Below, in pieces: positions 2,696-35,231 of a stretch of DNA of 61,615 bases. Both the position numbers and the translations under genes were made by a program. The stretch is from contig JBBTED010000063.1 of the NCBI GenBank assembly GCA_038042445.1, forward strand, positions 1 to 61,615, written 5' to 3'. The notes beneath the pieces are model-generated. The model worked only from the letters and a program-made list of their open reading frames with translations. It was not told the origin of the DNA and made no database searches. Within the stretch, counting starts at the first letter, position 1; each line of letters starts with the position of its first letter. The stretch comes from Candidatus Firestoneibacteriota bacterium. GTDB lineage: Bacteria > Oederibacteriota > D2-FULL-39-29 > JBBTED01.

Positions 2696-3434
2696 AAGGG
2701 TTAATAACCTCCTCTTTTCCTGATAAAAGTTCTTTAGACAAAACCAATTCTTTAATTACTTTGCCTTTTTTCTCTTCAGGAATAAATATACGTTTTTTAT
2801 TTAAAAAAAATGTGGCACCTGCAGGATTACCAATCCATAGTATAAACTTATTATTTGAGTACCACTCCTTTTTATCACCTGCATTTAAAACCATTTCTAT
2901 AGGTGCATTGTCATCTACTATCAACTGTAACCATGTTGCATCTATAACTTCTACAGACAATAAAAGTTTATCAGAAACATATTCAGGCGTTTCGCTAACA
3001 GGAACTGTAGTCTCAACAGGAACATTATATGAAGTATTCGGTTTGGATAATATTTTCCAAAAAATAGCAATAAGTACAACTATTATTCCTATTGCTACTA
3101 ATACTCGCAAAAATATTTTGTTTTGTGCCAATTGGACATCTGTAAATCTTATAGTTGATGTTTTCTTTTTTGTTCTATAGATAGTTTCATCAGAAGGCTT
3201 TGGAGCAGCCTGTTCTTCATAAAGAGCCATTATTTCAGGAACATCCAACCCTAAAAACTTGGCATAAGACCGCAAGAATATTTTAATATATAATGGATTT
3301 GGCAGAGCATCAAAATCCCCCTTTTCAATTGCTTCAATAAATTTTGCATTTATCCGTATTTTATCCTGAATTTCTAAAAGAGATAAACCCAATGACTCAC
3401 GTCTGTGTTTTAGAATTGCAATTATGTTAGGCAT
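2685..3434 (-). CDS. rodZ: RodZ-like protein (HTH, TM segment, DUF4115-type C-terminal domain)
   Basis: N-terminal HTH (IEAIEKGDF..LP..LY.K.FLRSYAKFLGL), single TM, C-terminal WLQL..D...IGNPAG. Confidence 0.85.
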   Translation of the reverse strand: MPNIIAILKHRRESLGLSLLEIQDKIRINAKFIEAIEKGDFDALPNPLYIKIFLRSYAKFLGLDVPEIMALYEEQAAPKPSDETIYRTKKKTSTIRFTDVQLAQNKIFLRVLVAIGIIVVLIAIFWKILSKPNTSYNVPVETTVPVSETPEYVSDKLLLSVEVIDATWLQLIVDDNAPIEMVLNAGDKKEWYSNNKFILWIGNPAGATFFLNKKRIFIPEEKKGKVIKELVLSKELLSGKEEVINPYGK

Positions 3435-3445
3435 AATGATTTTAA

Positions 3446-3475
3446 TTATATATTAGGTGATTATAGAAAAGCAAC
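3446..3475 (-). promoter_or_regulatory. Possible sigma70 promoter for rodZ
   Basis: TTGCTT-18 bp-TATAAT on the minus strand just upstream of the ATG. Confidence 0.35.
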
Positions 3476-3487
3476 TAAAATAAGAAT

Positions 3488-3507
3488 GCCGATAAATCGG
3501 CAACTAC
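3488..3507 (-). repeat. REP-1 single copy
   Basis: gccgataaatcggcaactac. Confidence 0.9.
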
Positions 3508-3560
3508 ATATTGTGTTTTAGAATGATTAACCTATTACCTTTAATAAAGGGGTAGAATAA

Positions 3561-4517
3561 TTAAGGTATAAAGGATAGGGAAATGCGATGTGTTCCTGAA
3601 ACATCATTCATAAAATTAAATGGGATTATAAATGCATAGTCAATGCCTATTTGGGAAGAATCCATAGGAAGTTTCACCCCAAATCCAACACTTGCATTTG
3701 AGTATTTGTTATTACCTATTGAATATCCGCCTCTTGCTGCAAATTCAAATGGGTCTTTTATTGAAAATTCAACACCTGTATTAATACTATAGTCTGATTT
3801 GCGCCAGTCATACTCCAAATTTCCTGTAACTGATTCTAAAAGTTTAGAGGATACTCCTGCTCTGAATAACATCGGGACTATATCTTCTTTATTAACACTT
3901 ACATCCGGTTGAGTCAAATTTTCTGCTGATAATCCAATTGTAAGATTATTGGTTAATGCTATTGGTTTTATTAAAAGCGAAATGTCTGCTGTGTATCCCC
4001 AAGCAGATGTTTTATTTGCAAACGCAGAATTTGCACTTGTATATTCATTTTCACCATACTTTTTGTTTAACAACTTTAATTTTAAACCAACATTAACCTC
4101 ATGAGTTTCTATTTTGGCATATTTTGTAGGTGAATAAGCTAAGGCCAAAGAAATAATACTTTCTCTGTAACTTGCACTTGATGAATCAGCTATTAAATGG
4201 TCCCACCCGCCTGCTAAAGTTGAATATTCTGATAATGGGTAAACATAAGATATTTCTCCCTGTGCTAAACCCGGAACCCCTACATAAAGCCTGGTATAAG
4301 TAGTTAAAAACATAAATTTTTGCACCTGAACTAAACCTGCTGGGTTATAATGCAATGCATTTACATCATCAGAAATTGCCACGAATGCCTTACCCATACC
4401 GGATGGCCTGGCGCCGCTGCCAATATCCATAAAGGCAGCATAAGAAGAAAATGCAAATGATAAAGTAAATAACATTAGAATTAAGAACATTTTAATTTTC
4501 AAATTATAATTTTTCAT
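3561..4517 (-). CDS. PorV/PorP-like (UPF0164-type) outer-membrane beta-barrel, copy 1
   Basis: Signal peptide, then AFMDIGSGARPSGMGKAFVAISDD..ALHYNPAGL; C-terminal IDYAF..P.....GTHRISL; start moved to ATG 4517 because the extension is a REP. Confidence 0.8.
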   Translation of the reverse strand: MKNYNLKIKMFLILMLFTLSFAFSSYAAFMDIGSGARPSGMGKAFVAISDDVNALHYNPAGLVQVQKFMFLTTYTRLYVGVPGLAQGEISYVYPLSEYSTLAGGWDHLIADSSSASYRESIISLALAYSPTKYAKIETHEVNVGLKLKLLNKKYGENEYTSANSAFANKTSAWGYTADISLLIKPIALTNNLTIGLSAENLTQPDVSVNKEDIVPMLFRAGVSSKLLESVTGNLEYDWRKSDYSINTGVEFSIKDPFEFAARGGYSIGNNKYSNASVGFGVKLPMDSSQIGIDYAFIIPFNFMNDVSGTHRISLSFIP

Positions 4518-4527
4518 TTTTAACTTT

Positions 4528-4650
4528 CGCAGGCTAAAGCCTGCGACTACCACTAAAATACACTAGATTCCAGCTATTTGTCAGGCAAGATGCCTGACCT
4601 ATTGCATGCGGGAATGACTTAACTTCCCTACCCCTCTTATCAGAGGGGGA
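4528..4650. repeat. Repeat cluster: GTAGTCGCAGGCTTTAGCCTGCG REP, nested composite element and a CCCCTCT/AGAGGGG hairpin
   Basis: 4528-4550 REP; 4561-4618 GATTCC...GCGGGAATGAC arm interrupted by gtcaggcaagatgcctgacctat; 4631-4649 hairpin. Confidence 0.8.
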
Positions 4651-4659
4651 TAAGAACAA

Positions 4660-7600
4660 TTATCTTGCAAGTATTACTGTGCCTTTACCTGCTACATTAT
4701 TTCCTGTTTTTATCTGGAATAAATATATTCCGCCTTCAACAACATCTCCTATAGAATTTTTGCCGTCCCAAGAAACACTTGTGGAACCTCCAGCTTGTAT
4801 TTCGTCACGAATTAATCTTCCTGTTATATCCCATATTTTCAGTCCAACATCGTCTCCTTCGTTATTCGGGAAACTAAATGTGACTTTATTAAAAACACTG
4901 TCAGGGCCCATAGGTGTAAATGGATTTGGAGACAAAGTAAGCTCTGAAATCAAATCCTGCTTTATAACTATAGCATATTTAGTAAGATGCGAAGTTTTGC
5001 CTTCTACAAGAACATTCCCACTCTTTACTTTAATTGTACTTGGCAAAATCTGCCAATTTAAACCATCCCAATATGCTACTGCCAATTTATTTTCTGCATC
5101 AGCAACTCTTGTTTTAGGATCACTATTATCAACATATATTCCATCTACACTTGGCGCACGCAAAGTAACAGTTATTGCTCCCTCAAGTGTATCTATTGAC
5201 TTGCCTGATTCAGTTGCTGTAATGTCAAAACATACTATTGCTTTTCTAGGTTGCCTTTTACCTTCTGGAGCAGTAGTAACTTTCTTTATACTATAAGATA
5301 ATGTTTTATTTATCACTCCAGCAGAAATATTTAGTTTTACTTCTGTATCATCAGCACTTGCTATTTCTGCAGCCTGGCCAGCTGGTATTTTCGAAGAAAA
5401 TATTAGTGATTGAATGGAACCAGTTTGGACCTGTGGGGTATCTCCAGACACAGTAACAGTTATGGTTTTTACCTCTGCTACTTTTGATTTGATTGTTGCC
5501 TTAACTTCACCATTAGCATCTGTAACCGTGCTCGCCTGCTCAAGTGTATTACCAGAACCACTTACAGCTATTGTAATAGTTGCATTACTTATTGCTCCAC
5601 CACCTCGGCTTTCATATTTAACAGTTACAGTTGCCAAAGTTGTATTATCTGCAGGTAATTCGTTTTTATCAGATGATATTGTTACATAAGTTTCGCCAAG
5701 CCACAAAACAGTACTTCCTGATTCTACTGAATCAGCATTACTACCAACTATGTAATTCATAAAAGATAATTTCGTACTGCTTTTTGCAGTTACATTAGTT
5801 CCAGATGAAATATCATCAAAAGTACATCCATTTAGTGTTTTAGTCTGACCATTTGAAATATTCAAATACGTTCCAGCAGCCTGGCCCTGCCTGAAATCAA
5901 CATAATTTAATTTATTTATTGTTGAACCAGTACTTATCACTAAACCACTTGTATTTGTTCCTTTTATTGTTAAACCACTTATATCTAATGTTCCACCTGC
6001 CACATTCATTCCATAATATGTCCCAGTTTCCTGCGACTTTATTGTGGCTTTATTATTAGAACTTGCATTACAAGTAAAAGCTCCATTTATTGTTATAGTT
6101 TTACCTGAATACACTTCCCAATTAGCACCTGAATTAAGTGTTACAACTTTTCCAGTTGCGATTGTGTAATCCCCTGTTATTAAAGTGCCTGATATTGTAG
6201 CTGCATTTAATGTAAGAGTGTATAAATTTTGTGTGCTAAGTGTGCCACCGAAAGATATATTAAAATTGTTTGAAACTGTGCAATTTCCAGCCAAATTAGC
6301 CCAACCAACAATATTCAAATTATACCAGGTTGTTGATGTTATAGGATTTGTATCACCTGTGGAAGTTGTATAAGGAAAACTTCCACCTGCAAAATTAAAA
6401 GTGCTTGTTCCAGCAGATATAGACAAATCTGCATTAGTAAGTGTTCCTTTTGTTACAGAACCTCCACTGCTATTGCTATTAGTTGCAGTATTGATAACTG
6501 ATGGTGTATACCCACCTGTTACTGTCCATGTGCTTGAACCTGCATCTATTCCAAGACGAGACATATTTATTATCCCAGCACTAACATTACCTGAAGCACC
6601 AGAAGCATTATTTGCAACCATTGAAATATAAGGATTTATAGTTCCAGTTACTGTCCATTTACTACTTTCAGCATTTATATAAACTTTACCAGTAATTGAA
6701 GCACCTGATATTGTCCTATTGCAATTAGCACTATTAGTATAATTATATATACTTGCATACATATTAACACTACCTCCGAGTGTCCAAGTGCTTGTTCCAC
6801 CATTTATTATCGCACTGCCAGCAATTGTTCCAGGAGTAATTGCATTTGTAGAAGTAGATGCACTATTATCATAATTTAAACAATATAAATACATATTTAC
6901 AGAGCCTGTAATATTAAATGTGGATGAACCTGCATCTATCCTTGCTTCAGTATTTGAATCCATACCACCAGATGAAGCATCTATTGCACCAGTTAAAGTA
7001 ACCGCATTAGTATAAAAAGTTTGCTGAAGATATATATTTAAATTATTTGTAACATTCACAGTTCCTCCGTTTTGCCCATTTAATATAACTTTACAATTTG
7101 TCCAAGCAAGTACAGTTTGAGAAGAACCAGTCGCTAGAATAGTTTTATTCTGATAAATATTTAAAGTACCACAAGTCAAAGTTTTGCTATTTAAATTTAG
7201 AGTCATAGAATAAGCATCACGAGCAGTAACAGCAGTGTAATATAGATACATATTAAAAACACCTGTAGTTTTTAAATCTCCTGCAAGTGTAACAGTAGAA
7301 GTAACTGCAGCAAACTGCCGAATAATTATAGTACCAGTATAATTTGTATATCCGGGAATTGAAGCAGTAGCTCCTGTAACAAGAAACGTAATATTTACAG
7401 TTATTGCAGTAGTATCAGAAATAATAAGATTACCAGCATTAGCATCACCATAACTGTATATATTTAGTGTTCCACTACCACCAACATTTGCAAAAGTACC
7501 ACTTCCAAGTGTAACCGTGCCATAAGCATCAACAACCTTTGAAGAAGGTATAGTTGTTGTAGTACTTGGCTGTGCGCAGGTTAGATTATAAAATGGTGCA

Positions 7601-8772
7601 TTACCACTACCATCTGTTTCAACTGTACCTGTTCCACTAAGGGTAACTGTTGAAGTACTTCGGACAAAATATGCAGTGGTAGCTGTAGCTAACCAATTGC
7701 CTGAACAAGTTATTAAACTCGTTCCTGAACAATTAATTCTTCCAAAAGCACCTATTGTAATATCATTTGCTGAAAGGCCTGTAGATGAACTTGCTGCTAT
7801 ACTTATCTGAGCACGATCATTTGAATCAGTGCCAGTAAGTGAAATATCGCCAGTTACTGTGCAATCATAAGTGCTTATATTCAATACCGTATCAGCGGTC
7901 CCATTATTATTATCCAAAATTGTTAAATTTCCGCCAATAGTTAAATTGGCTCCAAGTGTCATTATACTACTTGCATTTCCTGCAGAAGTAATACCTAAAT
8001 CACCGTCTATTGTAAGTGCATTGCTAACAGTTATTGTTCCTGTATAAGTGCTAATTGAAAAAGTTGTAAGCGAATTTGCAGGAGCTACATTCACTGTGCA
8101 ATTAGCACTACTTGTAGCATTAAATGTAACAGTATCACCAGCAGCCTGCCCCGGATATGTCCCATCATTTAAATCCCAGTTTGTAGTTGTGCCCCAATTA
8201 TTATCCCCACCGCCATTATTCCAAACAAAATTTTTAGCATAGCAAAAAGCAGGAACAATAAGTATTATTGCAAGTATTATTGTAGTTGCTGATTTATCAG
8301 CGGTTTTTTTTGCCGATGGGCCTGGAACTACTGATTTCGCCGATGAATCGGCAACTACATTATAGATTTCTTTTAAATCTATTTTTTCTTTCAATGGATT
8401 ATTTTTTATATATTCGCGGATTTTATCCAACGCTTTTTCTGTTCTTATTATATGTTCATAATAACCTGGTTGCCATAACCTCCGACCAGATTCCAAAGAA
8501 CACTTGGATTTAAATCTCCTAATTATTTCACCTAAACTAAATTTAGCCCCATCTAAAACCACAATTAAATGAAAATGATTGTTCATTATTTGATAAAAAT
8601 CTATTTTTACCCCACTAAATTCATCTTCAATTTTCTTTGTATGCCGCAGAATTATTTCTTTTTCTACATCAGAAAAGTTTAGATGATAATTACTAGAAAT
8701 AGTTACAAAGTAAAAACCATTTGTAGTATAGTCATATTGTTTCAACCGTATATTTTTTATTGTTTGTACCAT
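4660..8772 (-). CDS. Fusion ORF: N-terminal RAYT (Y1 HUH transposase) domain + translated REP cluster + signal h-region + large beta-rich surface protein with Ig-like domain and T9SS-like CTD (cargo 1)
   Basis: aa 1-137: RLKQYDY..GFYFVTI, MNNHFH (HUH), WQPGYYEHIIR, YIKNNP; no stop before VVADSSA...DKSATT-IILAIILIVPAFCYA; C-terminal PNPFTP...IWDITG...WDGKN...GKGTVILAR. Confidence 0.8.
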   Translation of the reverse strand: MVQTIKNIRLKQYDYTTNGFYFVTISSNYHLNFSDVEKEIILRHTKKIEDEFSGVKIDFYQIMNNHFHLIVVLDGAKFSLGEIIRRFKSKCSLESGRRLWQPGYYEHIIRTEKALDKIREYIKNNPLKEKIDLKEIYNVVADSSAKSVVPGPSAKKTADKSATTIILAIILIVPAFCYAKNFVWNNGGGDNNWGTTTNWDLNDGTYPGQAAGDTVTFNATSSANCTVNVAPANSLTTFSISTYTGTITVSNALTIDGDLGITSAGNASSIMTLGANLTIGGNLTILDNNNGTADTVLNISTYDCTVTGDISLTGTDSNDRAQISIAASSSTGLSANDITIGAFGRINCSGTSLITCSGNWLATATTAYFVRSTSTVTLSGTGTVETDGSGNAPFYNLTCAQPSTTTTIPSSKVVDAYGTVTLGSGTFANVGGSGTLNIYSYGDANAGNLIISDTTAITVNITFLVTGATASIPGYTNYTGTIIIRQFAAVTSTVTLAGDLKTTGVFNMYLYYTAVTARDAYSMTLNLNSKTLTCGTLNIYQNKTILATGSSQTVLAWTNCKVILNGQNGGTVNVTNNLNIYLQQTFYTNAVTLTGAIDASSGGMDSNTEARIDAGSSTFNITGSVNMYLYCLNYDNSASTSTNAITPGTIAGSAIINGGTSTWTLGGSVNMYASIYNYTNSANCNRTISGASITGKVYINAESSKWTVTGTINPYISMVANNASGASGNVSAGIINMSRLGIDAGSSTWTVTGGYTPSVINTATNSNSSGGSVTKGTLTNADLSISAGTSTFNFAGGSFPYTTSTGDTNPITSTTWYNLNIVGWANLAGNCTVSNNFNISFGGTLSTQNLYTLTLNAATISGTLITGDYTIATGKVVTLNSGANWEVYSGKTITINGAFTCNASSNNKATIKSQETGTYYGMNVAGGTLDISGLTIKGTNTSGLVISTGSTINKLNYVDFRQGQAAGTYLNISNGQTKTLNGCTFDDISSGTNVTAKSSTKLSFMNYIVGSNADSVESGSTVLWLGETYVTISSDKNELPADNTTLATVTVKYESRGGGAISNATITIAVSGSGNTLEQASTVTDANGEVKATIKSKVAEVKTITVTVSGDTPQVQTGSIQSLIFSSKIPAGQAAEIASADDTEVKLNISAGVINKTLSYSIKKVTTAPEGKRQPRKAIVCFDITATESGKSIDTLEGAITVTLRAPSVDGIYVDNSDPKTRVADAENKLAVAYWDGLNWQILPSTIKVKSGNVLVEGKTSHLTKYAIVIKQDLISELTLSPNPFTPMGPDSVFNKVTFSFPNNEGDDVGLKIWDITGRLIRDEIQAGGSTSVSWDGKNSIGDVVEGGIYLFQIKTGNNVAGKGTVILAR

Positions 8773-8801
8773 ATAATTATAGCCGATAAATCGGCGACTA
8801 C
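8282..8801 (-). mobile_element. RAYT1 module: RAYT domain flanked by REP-1 copies
   Basis: REP-1 at 8782-8801 upstream and a 77-bp REP cluster at 8282-8358 downstream of the HUH domain. Confidence 0.85.
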
Positions 8802-9886
8802 AATTCTGTTAATGTTAGTGAAACTCTATGTGTGCCTGTAACACCCTCTGCAAAATTTAATGGGTATATGAATGCATAATCAAGAGTAGAATGGACAAAA
8901 CCCAGTGGAAGTTTCAGACTAATGCCTCCACTTGCATCTGTGTATTTTCTGCTGCCGTAGCTTACTCCTGCTCTTAAACCGAAATTAGTCCATGTGTCAG
9001 GCAAGATGCTTGACCTATTAGCTGATGAATTAGATGCCGATAAATCGGCAACTACAGGACCAAACAACCAGTATTCCACGCCGTTATGGATGCTCCAATC
9101 AATGCCTCTTATTTTAAATTCAAAACTTTCAGTTAAATTATAGTCTAATTTTGCTGAGAAACCTGCTCTTATTATTGATGGAACTGAGCTTGTTGCAGCT
9201 ATACCCATATCCGGCTCATTTATATTTGTCAAAGAAAAACCTAAATTAAACTCTTCAAATATCACATCTTTCATTTTAAATAATGCTCCTATATCTATGC
9301 CAAAATTCCATTTATTTAAAGTAGTAAATAATGTATTTGCTTTTGTCCATTCATTTTCTATATATTTTTTATTTAATGCTTTTATATTTAAGCCAACTGC
9401 CATTTTAAAATTGGGTTCTGTTTTTTGTGCCGATAAATCGGCAACTACATTTTTTGACGGTGATATGGCAAAACTGATGCCATATATACCTTCTGCATAT
9501 CCTGCATCTGCACCTGATAAATTAAATGTAGATGCCATAAGCCCAAGTTTAAAATGCTTGGAAAACGGATAAATATATTCTAATGTTCCGTCATATAAAG
9601 ATTCAGGTATGCCCTGATATAATTTCGTATAAGTGGCAGAAAAAGTCATTTTGTCAATAAAAGCCATACCTGCAGGATTATAGTATAAAGCATTTGCATC
9701 ATCTGCAAGTGCAACAAACGCTTTACCTAAAGCAGAGGGCCTGGCGCCATAACCTGTGTCCATAAAGGCAGCATAAGAAGAAAATGTAAAATGAAAATTG
9801 CAAATTACAAAAGTAAGAATTAAAAAAATATTTCTACTTTTTCTTTTGAATTTTACACTTTGCAATTTACAATTTACAATTTTCAT
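8798..9886 (-). CDS. PorV/PorP-like beta-barrel, copy 2, with two in-frame REP insertions
   Basis: AFMDTGYGARPSALGKAFVALADDANALYYNPAG...GTHRVSLTLTEL; stop TAG is the GTAG of a REP. Confidence 0.8.
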   Translation of the reverse strand: MKIVNCKLQSVKFKRKSRNIFLILTFVICNFHFTFSSYAAFMDTGYGARPSALGKAFVALADDANALYYNPAGMAFIDKMTFSATYTKLYQGIPESLYDGTLEYIYPFSKHFKLGLMASTFNLSGADAGYAEGIYGISFAISPSKNVVADLSAQKTEPNFKMAVGLNIKALNKKYIENEWTKANTLFTTLNKWNFGIDIGALFKMKDVIFEEFNLGFSLTNINEPDMGIAATSSVPSIIRAGFSAKLDYNLTESFEFKIRGIDWSIHNGVEYWLFGPVVADLSASNSSANRSSILPDTWTNFGLRAGVSYGSRKYTDASGGISLKLPLGFVHSTLDYAFIYPLNFAEGVTGTHRVSLTLTEL

Positions 9887-9958: not shown

Positions 9959-12900
9959 TCATTTTGCTAATACTATTGTGCCTTTTTTAGCTACAGTATT
10001 GCCTACTTTCAGCATATAAATATATACACCGTCTTCTTCTATATTCCCTTGCTCATTTTTGCCATCCCAGGATAAACTTTCTCCATAACTTGCGGTTATT
10101 TCTTTGATTAGTATTCCTGTTAAATTCCATATTTTTATACTTACTGCTTGAACACTTGCATTTGGGAATGAAAACTGAACAGAGTTAAAACTGCTATCCC
10201 CGCTTAAAGGCATAAATGGATTTGGAAATACTTTCACTTCTGTAATAGGAATTGACTTAACTATAACTGCGAATCTTGAAAGATGATCAGTTTCACCTTC
10301 AACTAAAATATCCTTGCCATCACCAGATACAAGGACAGTTGAAGTTAATTCAGCCCACCTTTTTGAACTTTCATCCCATCTTGCTAATGTTAATTTGTCC
10401 GGAGCATCACTTATTCTAACAGCTCTGTTTGTATCATCTACATAAGTGCCATCTCCTGTAGTGTGCAATGTTATTTTTATTTTGCCGGAAAGCTGGCTTA
10501 CTTTAGACGAAGTACTATTATCAGTAGCCCATATATCATATACTACTACTGTATCTTTTGAACCAATAACTGCAACAGTTACTTCACTTGATAAAACTTT
10601 ATCAATATGAAAATTTAAACTCTTGTCAAGAACACCACCTGGAATATATACTTTTGTTTTATTATCATCTGATGAATAAAGAGAAGCTTCCTCACCTACA
10701 TTCACTAATGTATTAAAATTTATACTTGAATTTTGATATGTTATAGTTGCAGTGCTATCACCTTCAACGCTCGCTGTTATAGTTTTTACTTCTGATTTTG
10801 AAGATTTAACTGTAATTTGAACTTTACCATCAGTATCTGTAACACCAGAAGTTCCACTTACTGTATTACTGGTTCCACCTACTGTAATATTAATTGTCCC
10901 CCCTGGAATAGGGATATTAGCACGAGAGGTCAAAATTGCCGTAATAGTAGCTATACTTATATTATCCGCTCTGACTGAAGAAGAAGAAACAGAAACTGTT
11001 AAAACATTTCCGTTTGCCCACACAACACTTGAACCTGATTCCACAGTGTCCCCATTTGTTCCAACAGTATACCCTATAAATGTAAGTTTTGTGCTATTTG
11101 AAACTTTAACATTTTTACCAGATGAAATATCACTAAAAGTACAACCTGATAATGTTTTAGTTGCACCATTTGAAACGTCTAAATGGACACCACTTGCTTG
11201 CCCATTTGCAAAATCAACTGAATCTAATTTAGTTAATGTAGAAGCACTATTTATAACAAAACCATTTATATTTAAATATGATAATTGCAAACCTGAAACA
11301 TCTACTTCCCCACCTATACATCTCAATCCAAAAAACGAAGCAATATTAACAGAACTGATAGTTGGTTTTGAAGTATTAGTAGACGGGCAATAAAGTTTTC
11401 CGTTTATTGTTATTGTTTTGCCATTATTAAGATACCATGCTGAACCGCTATTTAAAGTAGCAGTTTTCCCTGAAGCAAGAAGGACATCATTAGTTGTCAT
11501 AACACCTGTATTAGTAAGCCCTCCATTTAGAACAAGAATATTTGTGTTTAAAGTTCCTGTATTGGTTAATAAACCTGCTACAGTTAAAGTGCTTGTATCA
11601 TTAGTTGAAAATGTACCACTGTTGCCAAAAGTCCCATTTAAAACCAAATTAGTCGCGTTAATACTTGATACAACAGAATTATTAGTTAATATACCTGTTA
11701 CAGTTAAAGTGTATGAACTCAAATCAATATTATTATTTAATGTAAGATTATTATTTACTGTCCCATTTTTTGTTAATGTAATTGCTCCGGTTAAATCCAG
11801 ATTATACCATGTGGTTGATGTTATAGGATTTGTAGCACCACTTGCACTAACAACTGGAAGATTTGCAGTATTTGAGAATTTAAAAGAACTTGTACTACTT
11901 GATATTGTTAAATCAGCATTTGTTAAAGTTCCTATATTAGCAGCACCTGCCCCACCTTGTGTGGCAGTATTTGTAACACTTGGATTATACGTTTGACCTA
12001 CTACCCATGTGCTTGCTCCTGCATCTATACCTATTCTTCCCACATTCATTGTTCCAGATGAAAGAGCATTTGAACTGGTATTACTTACAGTCATTGTTAC
12101 ATAAGGATTGACATTACCCGCTACATTCCATGTGCTATTTCCTGCATCAATATACGCTTTACCTGTAATTGAACCACCTGATATAGTTGCAGATGTAGAA
12201 GCACCTGTTGTAGAATAGTCCATACTTGCATAAGTATAAACACTACCTCCTACTGTCCAAGTGCTTGTGCCACCATCTATCACTGCATTTCCTGCAATTA
12301 TACCTTGTGTAACTGTCATATCACTTCCATTTGTAGAAGAACTATCCAATAATAAATATACTTTTACAGAACCTGTAATATTAAATGATGCTGAACCTGC
12401 ATTTATTCTTGCTTCAGTATTTGAATCAAAAGTAGAAGCTCCAGCATTTACTGTATCATCATCGGTTTCAGCATCACCAAAATAACGTTGGCGTAAATAT
12501 ATAGATACACTGTCAGAAACATTCACTATCCCACCACTTGCTCCGCTTAGTATAGCTTTACAATTAGTAAAATTTAAAGGAGTATATGTAGCAGAACCCG
12601 AAAGATTTAAAACTCTGTAACAATAAACATTTAAATTAGTACAAGACAAAGTTTTTCCATTTAAATTTAACGTTATAGAAGTATTCGCCAAGGCATTAAC
12701 AGTATTATTATTAATATATACTTCAACAGGCCCTGTGTTTCTCACATCACCAGCAAGAGTAAGTGTTCTGGAAGAACTATTATTAGGATAAATATAGAAT
12801 ATCCCATAATTCTGATATGCAGGCAAAGAAGCATCTGCTGAAAGATTAAAAGCTAAAGCAGTACTTATTGCAGCCGGATTACTAGAAACATCAAGAGAAG

Positions 12901-13831
12901 CTGTAGTGCCGTAATTTTGCAAGACAATCAGATTTGAAACTAAAGAACCTGTTCCGGGTTTTAAAGTACCATATACGTATATACCCGAGCTTGAAACTGT
13001 AGTAGTATTACCTGATTGAGCACAGGTTAAATTGTAAAAACAAGCGTTTGCTGTCCAAGTTCTTGATGCAAGAGTCCCTGTTCCTGTAAGAGTTACTGTG
13101 GATGTAATAGTACTTGTGGCAAAACTTGCATTAGCATTTGACATATCCCAATTTCCAGAAGCAGTTATTTTAGAACCATTTACAGGAAGTATACTTCCAT
13201 AAGCACCTATTGTAACATCATTTGCTGAAAGACCTGTGCTCGAGCTTGCTCCTATTGTTATCTGACCATAGTCATTTGAATCAGTACCAGTAAGTGAAAT
13301 ATCACCTGTTACAATACAATCAAAAGTTGATACAGCTAATATCACATTGGTCCCTGTATTACCATTATCGTATATTGTTAAATTTCCACCAACTGATATA
13401 TTAGCTCCAAGTGTCATTACTGTCCCGGCTGTAGAAGTAATACCTAAATCACCAGTTATAGTTAAAGTATTGCTTACAGTTACAGTATTCGTATAAGCGG
13501 TAATATAAAAATTTGCAATAGATGTAGGTGCAGATGCATCCCAAGTGCAAGCCTTAGTACCTGTAGGAAAAGTTACACTATCCCCAACTACAGGAGCTAC
13601 ATCAAGGTCCCAATTTGCACCTGCAGATGCATTAGCCCCTGCATCACCACCGTCCCAAATCTTATTAGCACTATAGCAAAAAACAGGAGCAAAAATAATC
13701 ATTGCAACTGTTATTATTGTAGTTGCCAATTTATTGGCGATTTTTTGTGAAAATGGACCGGCACCTACTGAGTTCGCCGATAAATCGGCAACTACATCCG
13801 ACAAGAAAGTTTTAAATTTTACACTTTTCAT
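9959..13831 (-). CDS. Large secreted beta-rich surface protein with Ig-like domain and T9SS-like CTD (cargo 2), paralog of cargo 1
   Basis: Shares TGDISLTGTDSND, FYNLTCAQ, DSNTEARI, NPITSTTWYNL with cargo 1; REP cluster in the signal peptide; CTD FPNPFMP...IWNLTG...WDGKN...KKGTIVLAK. Confidence 0.8.
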   Translation of the reverse strand: MKSVKFKTFLSDVVADLSANSVGAGPFSQKIANKLATTIITVAMIIFAPVFCYSANKIWDGGDAGANASAGANWDLDVAPVVGDSVTFPTGTKACTWDASAPTSIANFYITAYTNTVTVSNTLTITGDLGITSTAGTVMTLGANISVGGNLTIYDNGNTGTNVILAVSTFDCIVTGDISLTGTDSNDYGQITIGASSSTGLSANDVTIGAYGSILPVNGSKITASGNWDMSNANASFATSTITSTVTLTGTGTLASRTWTANACFYNLTCAQSGNTTTVSSSGIYVYGTLKPGTGSLVSNLIVLQNYGTTASLDVSSNPAAISTALAFNLSADASLPAYQNYGIFYIYPNNSSSRTLTLAGDVRNTGPVEVYINNNTVNALANTSITLNLNGKTLSCTNLNVYCYRVLNLSGSATYTPLNFTNCKAILSGASGGIVNVSDSVSIYLRQRYFGDAETDDDTVNAGASTFDSNTEARINAGSASFNITGSVKVYLLLDSSSTNGSDMTVTQGIIAGNAVIDGGTSTWTVGGSVYTYASMDYSTTGASTSATISGGSITGKAYIDAGNSTWNVAGNVNPYVTMTVSNTSSNALSSGTMNVGRIGIDAGASTWVVGQTYNPSVTNTATQGGAGAANIGTLTNADLTISSSTSSFKFSNTANLPVVSASGATNPITSTTWYNLDLTGAITLTKNGTVNNNLTLNNNIDLSSYTLTVTGILTNNSVVSSINATNLVLNGTFGNSGTFSTNDTSTLTVAGLLTNTGTLNTNILVLNGGLTNTGVMTTNDVLLASGKTATLNSGSAWYLNNGKTITINGKLYCPSTNTSKPTISSVNIASFFGLRCIGGEVDVSGLQLSYLNINGFVINSASTLTKLDSVDFANGQASGVHLDVSNGATKTLSGCTFSDISSGKNVKVSNSTKLTFIGYTVGTNGDTVESGSSVVWANGNVLTVSVSSSSVRADNISIATITAILTSRANIPIPGGTINITVGGTSNTVSGTSGVTDTDGKVQITVKSSKSEVKTITASVEGDSTATITYQNSSINFNTLVNVGEEASLYSSDDNKTKVYIPGGVLDKSLNFHIDKVLSSEVTVAVIGSKDTVVVYDIWATDNSTSSKVSQLSGKIKITLHTTGDGTYVDDTNRAVRISDAPDKLTLARWDESSKRWAELTSTVLVSGDGKDILVEGETDHLSRFAVIVKSIPITEVKVFPNPFMPLSGDSSFNSVQFSFPNASVQAVSIKIWNLTGILIKEITASYGESLSWDGKNEQGNIEEDGVYIYMLKVGNTVAKKGTIVLAK
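13719..13795. repeat. 77-bp REP-1 cluster translated inside the cargo 2 signal peptide
   Basis: Same length and layout as 8282-8358; encodes VVADLSANSVGAGPFSQKIANKLATT. Confidence 0.85.
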
Positions 13832-13900
13832 TTTTATCTTCTTTGGTGGCTAATTTAGATAGTTTATCCCCTAATATTTTCTCAATTTTTTCCATAATAC

Positions 13901-13959
13901 ACTCCACTTTAACTCCCCTTAATCCCCTCTTTACTAAAGAGGGGAATCAAAGTGGAGTT
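13901..13959. repeat. AACTCCCC...CCCCTCTTTACTAAAGAGGGG...GGAGTT hairpin element overlapping a stop codon
   Basis: Outer IR actccacttt/aaagtggagt and inner cccctctttactaaagagggg; related copies at 37861-37941 and 55057-55113. Confidence 0.85.
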
Positions 13960-19610: not shown

Positions 19611-20180
19611 GTCATGCTGAGCATCAGCGAAGCATCTCGTCTTTTTTAAAAACTACGAGATTCTTCGGCTTTGCCTCAGAATGACTCAAATTCTTGCAAT
19701 TGTCATGCTGAGTATCAACGAAGCATCTCGTTTTAAAACTACGAGATTCTTCGGCTTTGCCTCAGAATGACTCTGCTAAATCCTTAAATTCTGAATTTTT
19801 ATTCATTATTAATTCTATTTTCTTTTTTCTAATCCATCCCTTAATTCTCTTTTCAGCGCAAATTGCTTCTTCCGGTTCATTAAATTCTTCAAAATAAACT
19901 AATTTGGTAACATTATATTTTTCAGTAAAACCTTTAACTAACTTATTTTTATGTTCATACATTCGCCTTTCTAAATTATTTGTAACACCAGTATACAAAA
20001 CAGTATTCCTTTTGTTAGTAGTTATATAAACATAATATTTCTTCATAATTTTGTTGTCATGCTGAGTGTCAACGAAGCATCTCGTTTTAACTGCTTTTAA
20101 CTACGAGATTCTTCACTTCGTTCAGAATGACATCACTTTGCCTCAGAATGACATCCTCAAAGGATGACGCTTCGCGTCAT
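19611..20180. mobile_element. GIY-YIG gene embedded in three direct copies of a ~70-75 bp GTCATGCTGAG...CTCAGAATGAC hairpin element
   Basis: Copies at 19611-19685, 19702-19771 and 20056-20131, plus partial arms to 20180. Confidence 0.75.
19762..20046 (-). CDS. Small stand-alone GIY-YIG nuclease
   Basis: YYVYI...VLYTGVTNNLERRMYEHK...FTEKYNVTKLVYFEEF...AI.AEKRIKGW.RKKK; stop TGA lies inside the flanking repeat. Confidence 0.9.
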   Translation of the reverse strand: MKKYYVYITTNKRNTVLYTGVTNNLERRMYEHKNKLVKGFTEKYNVTKLVYFEEFNEPEEAICAEKRIKGWIRKKKIELIMNKNSEFKDLAESF

Positions 20181-23100
20181 CGTGCCACAACAACCGTTCC
20201 TTTATGTAACACTTTTGTTCCAACTTTTATCTGGTAGATATATACTCCACCTTCAACTATATTACCCTGTTCATCTTTACCATCCCAGGAAGTTTCATTT
20301 ACCCCGCCTCTAATTACCATTTTTCGCATCAACGTTCCTGATACATCCCAGAATTTTATTTCTACTTCTTCAAAATTTGTATTTTCAATTCCGGAAAATC
20401 GGACTTCTCTAAATGAAGTGTCACTGCCTAAAGGAGTAAAAGGATTAGGCCTAGCATCCAAAGAAGAAGAACCAGCAGATTTAACAATAACAGCATAATA
20501 TCCCATCAAAGTTCCTTTTGCACGTATTATGACATCCTGATTATTTGGATAAACTGTGACACTACCACCTAATTTTGTCCATTTTTTAAATTTTTCGTCA
20601 TATACTGCAATACTTAAATTGTCTTTTGCGTCGGATATGGAAATAGACAGACGAGATAACTGTCCTACGTTAGATGGAGCTGTTCCGTCTATTGTGGCGC
20701 TGTTTGTGGCTTTAATATGAAAAGAAAATATTATAGGTGCTTCAAGCCTTGTAATTGCTACGCCATCTGAATCTTTTGCTCTTATGTCATAAGTAGTAAT
20801 TAACGTTTCACCTGCAGAAATATTCAAAGAACTCACCTCATCTGATAACAGCTGTTTAAAAGTATATGTAACAGGCCTATTTATAACACCTGTTGGAATT
20901 ATTATCTTACTCATTGAATCATAAGCTCCTGTTATTTCTCCGCCTATACCAGCTGGAATTAAACTCGTTGTACTCATAAGATAGTATGCCACAAATGTCT
21001 CTGTTGAAAAATCGCTTTCCAGAGCTGATGAATCTACAGATTTTATCTTGTAATAATAAGTATTTCCTTTTTGCACTGTTGTATCTTCATAAGAAACTGC
21101 AGTAGATGAAACAGTGCTTGTGTTAAGTTTTGAATAACCTGTGCCCGAACTCGTGCTTCTGTATATATCATAGCCTGCAAGTGTGCCGTCTGCCCCTAAA
21201 CTTGCATTCCAGGTAAGCTTAACTCTATCTATTTGTGCAGATGCAGAAAAATTCGCAGGTACACTTGCAGATTCATAACTATATATCATAACCCTGTTAT
21301 TACCATTATCTGCAATTGCCATTTTTTTACCATCTGTCCACAAGTAAGATGGCATATAAAACTTTGTATTACTTGTCCCATTAGTCCTGCCTGAAAAACC
21401 TACTTGTCCAAGCACTACATCACAAGCTTTATAACTTGTTAAACTATTAATATCATTCCATATCATTATTCTATTATTATATCTGTCAGTAACATAAAGT
21501 TTTTTGCCATCTGACCAACAGGCAATTGGGCTACGCATACCTGAAGCATTCGGAGTCGAGCTTGAAGCAATACCAGTGCTGTTATAATAACTTTCATTAA
21601 ATGCATCCTGGCCCAATACAACATCCGCAGCTACAAAATTTGAAGTTGGAATACTGTTATAAACTAAAACTCTATTATTAGTGTAGTCAACTATAAAAAG
21701 CTTTGTTCCATTTGACCATACGCATGTTGGATTGGACAGTGATTTTTCATTAACTGAAGTAGTTGCATCATCTCCTGTGCCATTATTACTAAGACGAGAA
21801 TTAAAATTTGGCTGGCCTATAACTACATCTGCAGATGCATTGTTTGATGTTGGAATTTTATTATATATTAAAACTCTGTTATTAGTTTTATCTGCAATAA
21901 AAAGCCGTGTGCCATCTGAAAATGTATGAAATGGATAATATAGTGAATAAGCATAAGCAGATGTATTAGTAATTGTTGTTCCCTGATTTATTGAAGTGGC
22001 TGTCATATTTCCCTGGCCTATAACTATATCTGCAGCAACACCATTTGTAGTAGGAATTGTATTATAAATTAATACTCTATTATAAGTCCAGTCTGTAATA
22101 AAAAGTTTTGTTCCATTAGAAAATACACCACACGGAAGCGACATTCCATAAGGAGAACCAGAACTACTCATACCATTAAAATCTGGCTGGCCTACAACTA
22201 CATCTGCTGATTTGCCACTTGCAACAGGAAAACTATTATAAATTAAAACACGTGCATTACCCTGGTCAGCAACAAAAAACTTAGCTCCATCATAATACAC
22301 GCCGGAAACATCAACCCCTATAGGATTAGTAGTTCTTGGACTTTGCAAAAAAATTCCGTTTGAATCTACGCGATAATCAGGTATTGTAGTTAAACTCGTT
22401 TGTCCTAAAACAAAATCAGCATTTGCATTATCTGACGTTGGAATAGTATTAAAACATAAAACTCTGCCATTACTCCTATCTGCAATAAAAAGCCTCGTAC
22501 CATCTGAAGTAATACCTTTAGGATTATTTAAACTATTTGCAGTTGCCATTCCACCACCTCTATTTATACCGCCTAATAAAGTTAAACTTGACTGGCCTAT
22601 AACTACATCTGCAGGCTGGCCAGAAGTTGGACTTGTAGTATTAAAAATCATCACCCTGTGGTCATTAGTATCAGATATAAAAATTTTACCTCCAGATACA
22701 CATACACCTTGAGGACTCGAAAGTCTTTTTACATATTTTGTAGAATCAGTTATAACAGCACTTGCAGTCATTGATTCCTGACCAAGCACTACATTTGCAG
22801 GTTGATTACTTGTAGGACTTATTGTATTCCAAATCAAAACTCTATTATTACTTCTATCAGCTACATAAATTTTTGAGCCATCTGAATAAACACAAGTAGG
22901 ATAATTAAGTGTATTTGCAGCAACACTTCCACCCTGATTAGCACTAGAATTTGTCCAATTTGTCTGACCTAATACAATAGACGCATTTGCATTAGTAGAT
23001 GGAATCCCGCTAAAAATCAAAACCCTGTGGTCATTTGGACTTGCTATATAAGTATTAGTTCCATCATAACAAACAGAACTTGGAGTCTCAAACCTATTTT

Positions 23101-23638
23101 GTGCTGCAGTAGCACTTCCAGCTGTTACAAGATCAACTGCACCAACTGCTATATCTGTTGCTGCACCATTTTTTGATGGAATAGAATTGTAAATCAACAC
23201 TCTTTGATTCATATTATCTGCTACAAAAAGATATGTTCCATCAGAATACACAGCACTTCCATTAGGTAAACCCTCACCAAAAAAGAAACTATCTGCAGAA
23301 ACTACCAAGTTACCATTATAATATGACTCACTCGTCCAAAAAGAAGGCTGGCCTACAACCCAACTTGCTTTTGCAGTTGAAGATGATGGAATAGAATCAT
23401 ATATAAGAACTCTGTTATTCTGCAAGTCAGTGATAAACAATTTTCCACCTGCAATACAAACACCATCCGGATATTTTAATTCATAAGAACCATCACCAGC
23501 ATTTGGTATCCCATTTAAAAAATTACTCTGTCCCACAACCGCTGTTGCAGATTTTTCGCCACCTGCAATCCAATTCACAGACCAACAGTTAATAGGAATT
23601 AACAAAACAAGTATTAGTACTACTATGAAATATTTCAT
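20177..23638 (-). CDS. Secreted NHL-repeat-like beta-propeller protein with FN3-like domain and T9SS-like CTD (cargo 4)
   Basis: Many DG.KLFIAD..NNRVLIYN.IPT....ADVV.GQ repeats; VKLTW..S...GYDIYRS...YYYKIKSVD; PNPFTP...FWDVSG...WDGKD...KGTVVVAR. Confidence 0.8.
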   Translation of the reverse strand: MKYFIVVLILVLLIPINCWSVNWIAGGEKSATAVVGQSNFLNGIPNAGDGSYELKYPDGVCIAGGKLFITDLQNNRVLIYDSIPSSSTAKASWVVGQPSFWTSESYYNGNLVVSADSFFFGEGLPNGSAVYSDGTYLFVADNMNQRVLIYNSIPSKNGAATDIAVGAVDLVTAGSATAAQNRFETPSSVCYDGTNTYIASPNDHRVLIFSGIPSTNANASIVLGQTNWTNSSANQGGSVAANTLNYPTCVYSDGSKIYVADRSNNRVLIWNTISPTSNQPANVVLGQESMTASAVITDSTKYVKRLSSPQGVCVSGGKIFISDTNDHRVMIFNTTSPTSGQPADVVIGQSSLTLLGGINRGGGMATANSLNNPKGITSDGTRLFIADRSNGRVLCFNTIPTSDNANADFVLGQTSLTTIPDYRVDSNGIFLQSPRTTNPIGVDVSGVYYDGAKFFVADQGNARVLIYNSFPVASGKSADVVVGQPDFNGMSSSGSPYGMSLPCGVFSNGTKLFITDWTYNRVLIYNTIPTTNGVAADIVIGQGNMTATSINQGTTITNTSAYAYSLYYPFHTFSDGTRLFIADKTNNRVLIYNKIPTSNNASADVVIGQPNFNSRLSNNGTGDDATTSVNEKSLSNPTCVWSNGTKLFIVDYTNNRVLVYNSIPTSNFVAADVVLGQDAFNESYYNSTGIASSSTPNASGMRSPIACWSDGKKLYVTDRYNNRIMIWNDINSLTSYKACDVVLGQVGFSGRTNGTSNTKFYMPSYLWTDGKKMAIADNGNNRVMIYSYESASVPANFSASAQIDRVKLTWNASLGADGTLAGYDIYRSTSSGTGYSKLNTSTVSSTAVSYEDTTVQKGNTYYYKIKSVDSSALESDFSTETFVAYYLMSTTSLIPAGIGGEITGAYDSMSKIIIPTGVINRPVTYTFKQLLSDEVSSLNISAGETLITTYDIRAKDSDGVAITRLEAPIIFSFHIKATNSATIDGTAPSNVGQLSRLSISISDAKDNLSIAVYDEKFKKWTKLGGSVTVYPNNQDVIIRAKGTLMGYYAVIVKSAGSSSLDARPNPFTPLGSDTSFREVRFSGIENTNFEEVEIKFWDVSGTLMRKMVIRGGVNETSWDGKDEQGNIVEGGVYIYQIKVGTKVLHKGTVVVAR

Positions 23639-24201
23639 AATTTATATTTTATGTTACTTTTTTGTACCTTTTGTTCTTGTAGCTTTTGTTCTTGTAGCTG
23701 CAAAGCGATAGCTTTGCTATCGTTTTTGCAATTGCATGCTTTAGCAGAGCTTCGCTCTGCCGCTACATTATAAAATTGTTTTACATCTATCTTTTCTTTA
23801 TATGCATTGTTATCTATATATCCCCTAATTATAGTTAAAGCATTTTCATTTCGTATTATATGTTCATAGTAATTTGGTTGCCAAAATCTTTTTTCATTAA
23901 ACCCATTATTTTTTATATCCAAAGTAGACTTAGATTTAAAATATTGAATTAGTTGAGGTAATGATTTATCCGTTCCCTCTAAAATTAAAATTATATGTAT
24001 ATGTGTAGGCATAATTTTATAATAATCTAATTTTACACCTTTATATTCAGATAAACTTTGTAAATGATTTTCAATAGTTTTGTTATAGTTTAAGCAAAGC
24101 TGACGCTTTGCAGCTACATAACTACAATGTATTGTTACAAAATAATAGCCATTTGTAGAATAATCATAATGTTTTAACCGTATATTTTTACGCAATTTCA
24201 T
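23635..24201 (-). CDS. RAYT (REP-associated tyrosine transposase), copy 2
   Basis: RLKHYDY..GYYFVTI, MPTHIH (HUH), FWQPNYYEHIIR, YIDNN; start moved to ATG 24201; C-terminus reads through its REPs. Confidence 0.9.
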   Translation of the reverse strand: MKLRKNIRLKHYDYSTNGYYFVTIHCSYVAAKRQLCLNYNKTIENHLQSLSEYKGVKLDYYKIMPTHIHIILILEGTDKSLPQLIQYFKSKSTLDIKNNGFNEKRFWQPNYYEHIIRNENALTIIRGYIDNNAYKEKIDVKQFYNVAAERSSAKACNCKNDSKAIALQLQEQKLQEQKVQKSNIKYKL

Positions 24202-24288
24202 AAATATTTGTTTTGTTGCTTTTGTAGTTTTTTGTAGCTGCAAAGCGTTAGCTTTGCTGTTGTTTGCAGAGCTTCGCTCTGCCGCTAC
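23694..24288. mobile_element. RAYT2 module flanked by direct copies of a private REP doublet
   Basis: gtagctgcaaagcg(a/t)tagctttgc...gcagagcttcgctctgccgctac at 23694-23766 and 24234-24288; single arm inside the gene at 24094-24117. Confidence 0.85.
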
Positions 24289-35107: not shown

Positions 35108-35108
35108 A

Positions 35109-35231
35109 TTAGTTGCCGATTTATCGGCTTGTAGTTGCCGATTTATCGGCAAAAAAAACGCTGATGAATCAGCAACTACAAAACAATTATTATAATAATA
35201 TTTGTAGGGAACAGGCATGCCTGTTCCCTAC
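35109..35231. repeat. Three REP-1 arms plus GTAGGGAACAGGCATGCCTGTTCCCTAC palindrome
   Basis: Arms at 35109-35128, 35131-35150 and 35160-35179; perfect palindrome at 35204-35231. Confidence 0.9.

Follow-up and report, generated by a model that had tools for sequence, protein, structure and literature searches.

A RAYT gene in one open reading frame with the gene of a putatively exported protein in Candidatus Firestoneibacteriota

REP-associated tyrosine transposases (RAYTs; REP, repetitive extragenic palindromic sequence) are the textbook domesticated bacterial transposases, and their expression control and host role remain open. A contig of a Candidatus Firestoneibacteriota bacterium (JBBTED010000063.1, assembly GCA_038042445.1) raises the question of how a RAYT and a neighbouring protein are made when the RAYT gene lacks a stop codon. 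On this stretch of 61,615 nt, called the window here, a RAYT gene, RAYT-1, continues in frame through a cluster of translated REPs into the gene of a large, putatively exported protein that we name cargo 1. We asked whether cargo 1 is the rear part of a RAYT-leader-cargo precursor, has a start of its own or owes its present form to an accident or an assembly error. The genome assembly (G000) comprises 2.81 Mb in 181 contigs at 31.9% GC, the window being its contig C63.

One frame from RAYT to cargo

The open reading frame (ORF) list gave a single uninterrupted ORF at 4660..8772 on the minus strand, with an ATG start and 1370 codons. It encodes, in this order, the RAYT, the REP cluster as 26 stop-free codons, a hydrophobic segment and a cargo of 1191 aa. 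In the 1370-aa translation, HFH occupies aa 66-68 and YIKNNP aa 121-126, followed by VVADSSAKSVVPGPSAKKTADKSATT and then by IILAIILIVPAFCYA. A first-pass annotation, made by a model from the letters and their ORFs, had described an apparently intact RAYT that reads without a stop, through a 77-bp REP cluster, into a secreted cargo. The unbroken frame bears this out and the cluster is present, with a length of 78 nt and thus off by one. We regard the RAYT-cargo fusion at the DNA level as real, with high confidence. Because the RAYT frame has no stop, a ribosome that starts at the RAYT ATG must run on into the cargo.

The intactness of the RAYT was supported by residues, fold and length. All 12 invariant columns were present in alignments of 27-31 sequences (that is, with 26-30 relatives), H66, H68, Y121 and N125 being invariant throughout. 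The fused protein reached 23.5 bits with Pfam Y1_Tnp (cut-off 23), and the RAYT domain 63.5 bits with NCBIfam REP_Tyr_transpos, under the 80-bit cut-off. A phmmer search matched it to the Escherichia coli TnpA-REP structure 4ER8 (E 5.5e-5), with HFH aligned on HMH and YIKNNP on YIYINP. An AlphaFold2 model (mean predicted local distance difference test score, 86.1) had 4ER8_A as its best Foldseek match (E 3.9e-7, template modelling score 0.69, root mean square deviation 2.2 over 112 columns), followed by IS608 and ISDra2 TnpA. Scoring the domain against 1.84 billion representative proteins returned 11,123 matches at E<=1e-3; 149 of the 150 best relatives are 90-285 aa long. Homology to the relatives stops at query aa ~137-139, so no part of the enzyme is missing where the REP cluster begins. 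In stand-alone relatives (six RAYT-only loci from other phyla), the stop codon follows 0-14 codons past this conserved end.

RAYT-1 is single-copy in the genome, its nearest paralog being 49% identical, and the frames of the three other Y1 genes terminate at 187, 177 and 164 aa. Among 29 matches in 41 related genomes, open frames measured 121-286 aa, with the fused RAYT at 1382 as the sole exception. The second RAYT of the window, RAYT-2 (noted over 23635-24243, minus strand), is 49-55% identical to RAYT-1 and is associated with a REP family of its own (head GTAGCGGCAGAGC...). The RAYT-2 frame passes 43 codons through its 3' REPs, and its TGA overlaps the ATG of a secreted-protein gene with a C-terminal domain (CTD) at 20177-23638 (minus strand). 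Both RAYTs of this clade thus sit immediately upstream of large exported-protein genes.

The segment at aa 165-179 is the sole hydrophobic one in the 1370 residues and lies 164 residues from the RAYT ATG. With 12-13 apolar residues, Pro at -6 and C-Y-A at -3 to -1, it looks like a cleavable signal core. Cargo 1 further contains a Big_1 domain (aa 1030-1113) and a CTD like that of type IX secretion system (T9SS) type A substrates at nt 4684-4929. The latter (TIGR04183/Por_Secre_tail) scored 25.2 bits against a cut-off of 23 in a six-frame genome search and 18.7 bits in a whole-protein scan; the same C-terminus gave 19.2 bits with Pfam FlgD_ig (cut-off 27). The genome holds 19 T9SS type A-like CTDs. 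SprA_N of the T9SS translocon was not found in the genome search, in which control genomes were equally silent.

Table 1. Positions of the fused gene, its parts and related features (window coordinates, except in the last row, where a contig is named)
Feature	Position	Strand
5' flanking REP of the RAYT gene (GTAG head + palindrome)	8782..8801	-
RAYT/TnpA-REP domain, complete, aa 1-140; HUH residues H66/H68, catalytic Tyr Y121 in YIKNNP	8353..8772	-
In-frame TTG, Leu127 of the RAYT; 12 codons ahead of REP1; no Shine-Dalgarno-like motif upstream	8392..8394	-
REP1, GTAG-headed, TC loop variant, read as VVADSSA	8339..8358	-
REP', degenerate REP copy	8312..8331	-
A8 spacer	8304..8311	-
Inverted REP variant, read as ADKSATT	8282..8301	-
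Hydrophobic segment, aa 165-179, IILAIILIVPAFCYA (...PAFCYA); signal-peptide-like core, C-Y-A cleavage motif	8236..8280	-
Mature cargo 1 (predicted), aa 180-1370	4663..8235	-
PorV/PorP-like beta-barrel gene upstream, two in-frame REP insertions (cores 9036, 9429)	8798..9886	-
PorV-like paralog downstream of the fused gene	3561..4553	-
Paralog cargo 2: own ATG + 12 codons, homologous REP cluster (13795-13718), homologous hydrophobic core	9959..13831	-
RAYT-2, second RAYT paralog, different REP family	23635..24201	-
In-frame REP loci elsewhere in the genome (L023-L032)	C136:45007, C81:49016, C22:13805, C72:43575, C86:21679, C50:676, C11:15976, C83:7541, C164:706, C116:6477	

The REP cluster and the junction

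The REP family around RAYT-1 combines a GTAG head with a 14-nt palindrome. Within the window its core recurs 15 times (30 matches when both strands are counted), where 0.04 would be expected, and the genome has 102 perfect copies, many of them paired with an inverted variant over an A-rich spacer. The 78-nt cluster of cargo 1 consists of REP1, a 7-nt spacer, the degenerate REP', a run of eight A (A8), CC and an inverted REP that abuts the hydrophobic stretch directly. REP1 and the inverted REP form a REPIN-type long hairpin with REP' in its loop. The predicted folding energy is -28.3 kcal/mol as RNA (z -4.9) and -14.4 kcal/mol as DNA (z -4.0), and for RNA and DNA alike 0 of 200 shuffles folded as well. 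The combination of REP1, spacer and start of REP' occurs in the genome solely here and in the leader of a paralog, cargo 2. At the other end of the RAYT gene, the TAG within the GTAG head of the flanking REP serves as the stop codon of the PorV-like gene upstream (8798-8800).

Cargo 2 is the genome's only relative of the cargo 1 N-terminal domain (44% identity). The two clusters are identical at 63 of 78 nt without a gap, and over the next 600 nt 411 of 631 alignment columns are identical, 62 being gap columns. In front of the cargo 2 cluster stand an ATG and 12 codons rich in Lys, MKSVKFKTFLSD, where the first-pass annotation had likewise seen a 12-aa leader; in cargo 1 the last 12 RAYT codons stand in their place. 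These 12 codons belong to the RAYT, since a motif of the K-E-K-I-D-x-K-x-x-Y-N type likewise ends RAYT-2 and database relatives just before their own REP. The join therefore lies exactly at REP1, and the ATG and n-region of cargo 1, both kept in cargo 2, are gone. The earlier suggestion that the RAYT replaced the N-terminus of the cargo at a REP fits this arrangement.

Two side observations concern cargo 2. In its inverted REP (13718-13740), changes on both arms preserve the palindrome (GCTGAT..ATCAGC to GCCAAT..ATTGGC) and create an in-frame TTG three codons ahead of the hydrophobic core, a possible alternative start. The spacer between the PorV-like gene and cargo 2 (13832-13958) carries a different nested palindrome, GAACTCCACTTT...AAAGTGGAGT around CCCCTCTTTAGTAAAGAGGGG.

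According to the reading that we prefer, and to which we assign a probability of roughly 0.42, cargo 1 is produced as a RAYT-leader-cargo polyprotein that arose by the take-over of its gene by a REPtron. The term denotes a RAYT or TnpA-REP gene flanked by its REPs (Corneloup 2021, PMC8266576). Such a unit, with the 5' REP, the RAYT gene and the 3' REPIN-like cluster, would have taken over the 5' end of the large exported-protein gene. In an earlier step, the cluster would have entered the ancestral signal peptide without shifting the frame, separating its n-region from its hydrophobic core; recombination or a RAYT-mediated event at REP1 would then have swapped all upstream sequence for the RAYT gene. 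Ribosomes from the RAYT ATG, unable to terminate, would make the precursor, which the internal hydrophobic core would direct to Sec. Signal peptidase I would cut after Ala179 and free the 1191-aa cargo, which would enter the PorV-like/CTD route, while the RAYT, attached to a short membrane stub, would stay facing the cytoplasm until degradation of that stub. As the leader is cut off, a take-over of the N-terminus would be harmless. The first-pass annotation had likewise proposed cleavage by signal peptidase, with a membrane-tethered RAYT made 1:1 with the cargo, which is possible.

Several points weigh against this reading. A folded domain of 160 aa ahead of a bacterial signal core is, to our knowledge, unusual. 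Y1 transposases need dimerisation and access to single-stranded DNA, which a membrane tether might hinder. The fusion was seen in one genome and lineage, G000 being the sole member of its family among the genomes compared; metagenome contigs yielded no relative of the cargo 1 N-terminal domain, and proteins of 753-2398 aa no homolog of cargo 1 residues 100-520. In other bacteria, RAYTs are also fused to cytoplasmic enzymes, where an internal Met suggests plain run-on ORFs. At the junction itself, an in-frame TTG (position 8394) at the distance of cargo 2's ATG from REP1 could start a precursor of normal length, and none of the candidate starts of cargo 1 has a Shine-Dalgarno (SD)-like motif. 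Lastly, twelve public runs from five studies, from groundwater or unlabelled and none recorded as RNA, contain the stretch; in the four runs that were compared, all contigs assembled at k=31 end in the inverted REP, so that the junction is not bridged.

The breaks at k=31 occur in the inverted REP because the 30-mer at 8281-8310 is present twice in the genome, on C63 and on C126, and support for the join thus comes from the original assembly and from its match with cargo 2. On either side, contigs of run X1 reproduce 7700-8309 and 8281-9300 without differences, as do contigs of X4, from another study, for 8198-8310 and 8281-8656, with the full A8. If the contig had been mis-joined at the inverted REP or the A-run miscalled, the RAYT would have a stop and the cargo would belong elsewhere. 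The shared 30-mer and the ends of the public contigs speak for such an artefact, as does one X6 contig that leaves the window at 8275 and passes from the RAYT side into the C126 flank. We nevertheless consider an artefact highly improbable. A repeat of 30 nt is far shorter than usual sequencing reads, and the independent X4 contigs reproduce both sides, A8 included. REP1, spacer and REP' on the RAYT side are otherwise found only before the cargo 2 leader, and the gene family of cargo 2 has no further member than cargo 1; with the alternative join, moreover, cargo 1 would lack a start codon altogether.

Other irregularities among the public contigs were assessed separately. The X6 contig was read not as a variant but as a graph path through the shared 30-mer. 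Contig joints from 8301/8307 to 9034-9036 and from 8301 to 8772 were rejected as deletions, as their sides of 20-23 nt correspond to other REP doublets. An X5 contig from another study covering 8768-8842 has 15 extra letters behind 8798 and 32 between 8774 and 8768; these may represent a strain variant of the RAYT 5' region and leave the cargo junction unaffected. In runs X4 and X5, the loose ends at 8800 also included contigs bearing the palindrome element of 13832-13958.

The A8 run bears on a further explanation, that a REP rearrangement or a one-base change of the A-run fused the two genes recently and by accident. The products would then be poorly expressed or mislocalized, and the locus, neutral to mildly harmful, would be decaying. 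One A fewer (A7) would yield a 164-aa RAYT ending at TAA and one A more (A9) a 158-aa RAYT ending at TGA; an ordinary RAYT is thus a single slip away. An accident would also suit the restriction of the fusion to one lineage and the uniform junction in the four runs, according to which the population looks young or clonal. We judge it improbable, however, since the frame and length of the A8 cluster match cargo 2, indicating that the in-frame cluster is old rather than a fresh slip, and since A7 or A9 would deprive cargo 1 of every start codon. Its 1191-codon frame is intact in a stop-rich genome of 32% GC. Moreover, the REP family with its 102 nearly invariant copies flanks RAYT-1 and no other RAYT, which argues for an active enzyme. 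Under the polyprotein reading, slippage in A8 could still yield some free RAYT, as judged from the reading frames.

The start of cargo 1

The TTG at 8394-8392, which the first-pass annotation had proposed as an internal start, remains a candidate. It stands exactly 12 codons before REP1, as does the ATG of cargo 2, and 38 residues ahead of the hydrophobic core. Between it and the core there is no ATG, GTG or TTG, and cargo 1 would thus be made either from the RAYT ATG or from this TTG. SD-like motifs precede 33% of the first ATGs in the genome against an 11% background. With SD-like motifs at only a third of these ATGs and at none of the candidate starts, the choice between the latter cannot be read from the sequence. 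A promoter scan was uninformative (10 sites, 11.1 expected).

In the case of separate initiation, cargo 1 would come mainly from TTG 8394, or from a rare ATA or ATT start near the hydrophobic core, its REP-coded n-region of 39 residues resembling the one in cargo 2; the 1370-aa read-through would be a functionless minor run-on product. The position of the TTG relative to cargo 2's ATG agrees with this, as do the composition of the resulting leader (seven Lys/Arg and five Asp/Glu) and the A/T-rich sequence upstream of the TTG, which resembles that at other starts of the gene array. Elsewhere, the run-on ORFs P0151, P0169, P0171, P0172 and P0178 retain an internal Met at the start of the RAYT's partner, and an Omnitrophota fusion described below (L014) has a GTG behind an SD-like AAAGGC. 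Di Nocera 2013 (PMC3733652) warns that REPs at ORF N-termini are often extragenic, with translation starting downstream. On the other hand, TTG 8394 lacks an SD-like motif, and the codon needs no special explanation: TTG makes up an unremarkable 20.5% of the Leu codons in the genome, and Leu is common at this position of RAYTs. Ribosomes from the RAYT ATG cannot stop, so the fusion product arises whenever the RAYT is made. Three fused loci in other bacteria (L013, L015 and L073) have no ATG, GTG or TTG before the core and yet contain long, intact partner genes. On balance, we consider separate initiation doubtful.

Translated REPs are not confined to the two cargo genes. Within open frames of at least 150 codons, we counted 37 REP/frame combinations, 16 of them with at least 60 codons on either side. 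Ten of these 16 frames were scanned, and nine gave Pfam family matches (loci in Table 1). The REP lies inside the family match at aa 469 of ArgS (DALR_1, 452-575), at aa 78 of a glycoside hydrolase family 2 (GH2) enzyme (23-194) and at aa 121 of an sCache adenylate cyclase (57-196). Further in-frame REPs were found in IF-2, an Eco57I-type methylase, a Wzy_C protein and GH42-like proteins. Copies of the main GTAG family mostly read VVADLSAK, or ADKSATT from the opposite strand. In the barrel protein PorV-2, a 22-residue REP-coded insert is absent from its two paralogs.

At ORF 5' ends the picture is a different one: in most cases the ATG follows the REP, a point that also speaks for separate initiation. 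Most 5'-end REPs here are probably untranslated, with cargo 1 and cargo 2 as exceptions. A large ORF at 31781-35218 (minus strand) has a REP doublet at 35115-35150 within its first 35 open codons and an ATG after the REPs (MDKGSILIL...), and its REPs are probably 5' untranslated sequence.

Fusions in other bacteria and relation to known systems

The first-pass annotation had called for a search for RAYT or Y1 domains fused to exported proteins in other genomes, and public data contained further cases. A profile search limited to proteins of 297-2000 aa gave 228 matches at E<=1e-8 among 8000 scored candidates, and 16 long RAYT forms were inspected. In 11 of them the RAYT is N-terminal to another protein, in two it is C-terminal (after TrpF and after acetate kinase) and three are RAYTs lengthened by REP-coded inserts. 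The partners of the 11 comprise five PilX-like proteins and one each of a CTD cargo, a pseudopilin, a PorV-like protein, MurC, a radical-SAM enzyme and CobT. The Met at the partner start is kept in five and absent in six. Eight of the 11 partners begin with a hydrophobic leader; an enrichment of exported partners was considered and rejected, as five of the eight belong to one PilX-like family, making the count small and non-independent.

The CTD cargo among these partners offers an independent parallel. On the contig of P0173 (locus L073), a large gene, two REPs, a fused ORF (2791-6141) and a PorV-like gene follow one another. The ORF encodes a RAYT, an inverted REP abutting a hydrophobic core, a pyrroloquinoline quinone (PQQ)-propeller cargo and a CTD, with no ATG, GTG or TTG ahead of the core. 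At L074 (2558-5416), a 71% ortholog of this cargo without a RAYT has a TTG start behind AAAGGAG and a different signal peptide, and is again followed by a PorV-like gene.

A fusion in several species was found in Omnitrophota. At three loci from three species (L013:2027-4039, L014:2501-4687, L015:75-1985), a RAYT shares one stop-free frame with a PilX-like minor-pilin gene, located behind a pseudopilin gene. The RAYT adjoins the PilX-like gene in three of 201 sampled genomes of the order, in frame in all three; as these cases are related by descent, the count is no statistic. The linkers differ in length and REP content. Two of the three (L013 and L015) have no ATG, GTG or TTG. In contrast, all 14 RAYT-less orthologs that were judged have their own start (13 ATG and one GTG with an SD-like motif) 5-25 codons before a Lys-Gly and the hydrophobic core; L049, cut by a contig end, and L039, whose start was not determined, stand outside this count. 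The RAYT of L015 has lost its C-terminal (catalytic) half by a REP-to-REP deletion, and the frame is still open. Judging from the conserved Lys-Gly, a prepilin peptidase cut after it would part the RAYT from the PilX-like protein.

A further case was noted in P0170 (600 aa), where a RAYT related to RAYT-2, and sharing its REP-coded peptide VAAERSSA, continues in frame into a signal-like core, then a PorV-like barrel and a ComEA-type HHH domain.

The recurrence of the layout before cleavable leaders suggests that a 5' take-over is tolerated where the N-terminus is removed anyway. In our proposal, the layout recurs before signal and prepilin-type leaders because cutting off the leader makes the take-over harmless. 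The window gene would then be one member of a wider class, in which RAYT-as-leader polyproteins are real and recurrent, a REPtron replaces the start and n-region, a leader peptidase separates the parts and selection keeps the frame. Taken as one joint claim, this extension is tentative, and we rate it as unlikely to hold in every part. If true, the host proteins would be translated from the RAYT start with a Sec signal or prepilin-type leader at their N-terminus, and how much of a domesticated DNA-cutting enzyme is made, and where, would be tied to an envelope protein. The Omnitrophota RAYT-PilX-like genes would be a conserved member, with the RAYT freed inside the cell.

The L073, L013-L015 and P0170 fusions resemble the window gene in the order of RAYT, translated REPs, hydrophobic export core and partner, in the inverted REP that abuts the core and in RAYT-less orthologs with ordinary starts. 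They differ from it in REP families, partner families and phyla, and the fusion is found in several species only in Omnitrophota. Similarities also exist to better-known arrangements. Eukaryotic host-transposase fusion genes carry DNA-binding domains in nuclear proteins and likewise join a domesticated transposase domain to a host protein. Known extended bacterial signal peptides also place extra N-terminal sequence ahead of the export signal, amounting to tens of residues and not to a folded 140-aa enzyme. Further work on REPtrons and TnpA-REP includes Ton-Hoang 2012 (PMC3333891), Messing 2012 (PMC3479197), Nunvar 2010 and Bertels & Rainey 2011.

With the REPtron of E. coli TnpA-REP (4ER8), the locus shares the HUH and Tyr residues, the closest fold, GTAG REPs on both sides, a single-copy gene and a cognate REP doublet family of ~100 genomic copies. 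It is unlike it in its sub-threshold NCBIfam score and in the RAYT, which has no stop of its own and continues into an exported-protein gene. In E. coli, the C-terminal tail of the enzyme alters its activity (PMC8266576). Intragenic GTAG REPs and REP dimers that are in frame, code for 20-30 residues and occur in excess at ORF N-termini, as well as REPs overlapping RAYT gene ends, are described by Di Nocera, De Gregorio & Rocco 2013 (PMC3733652), alongside the Rickettsia palindromic elements. In contrast, the cluster here joins a whole RAYT gene to a host gene whose start is lost. Long ORFs with a Y1 HUH domain and foreign sequence have also been noted before. Quentin et al. 2018 (PMC6006769) set aside 'unexpectedly long' TnpA-Y1 proteins as 'gene fusions or annotation errors' without analysing them, and the passages on these proteins report no partner types, junction anatomy or conservation. 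The claim in the first-pass annotation that no RAYT-secreted protein fusion had been described therefore stands in part: full-text literature searching found no paper that analyses a RAYT fused to an exported protein, but long forms had been noted and many such ORFs are public.

The locus is thus a variant of the known REPtron combined with intragenic REPs, and its interest comes mainly from recurrence and testability. A RAYT made only as the front of an exported protein would be controlled in a new way: it would be targeted to the membrane, produced in step with its partner and set free by a leader peptidase. The RAYT-leader fusion would also offer a new route by which a gene persists after its start has been lost. 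At present, such ORFs are dropped as errors by gene callers and in family studies, as the passage on long forms in PMC6006769 illustrates. Pairs of fused and RAYT-less orthologs (L073/L074 and the Omnitrophota set) make the question testable. Should cargo 1 instead prove to start internally, the locus would call for caution about run-on ORFs through stop-free REPs.

The genomic surroundings of the fused gene are regular. It belongs to an array in which large secreted-protein genes all point the same way and each has a PorV/PorP-like barrel gene behind it; the neighbouring barrel genes scored 25.3 bits with Pfam PorP_SprF (cut-off 22.3) and 67.2 with NCBIfam PorV_fam (cut-off 90). Between 3561 and 14960 (minus strand), three tandem pairs can be recognized, each with the gene of a large CTD-bearing protein and then its own PorV/PorP-like barrel gene, and the same layout is seen at L073 and L074. 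This pairing may be a cargo-specific shuttle arrangement.

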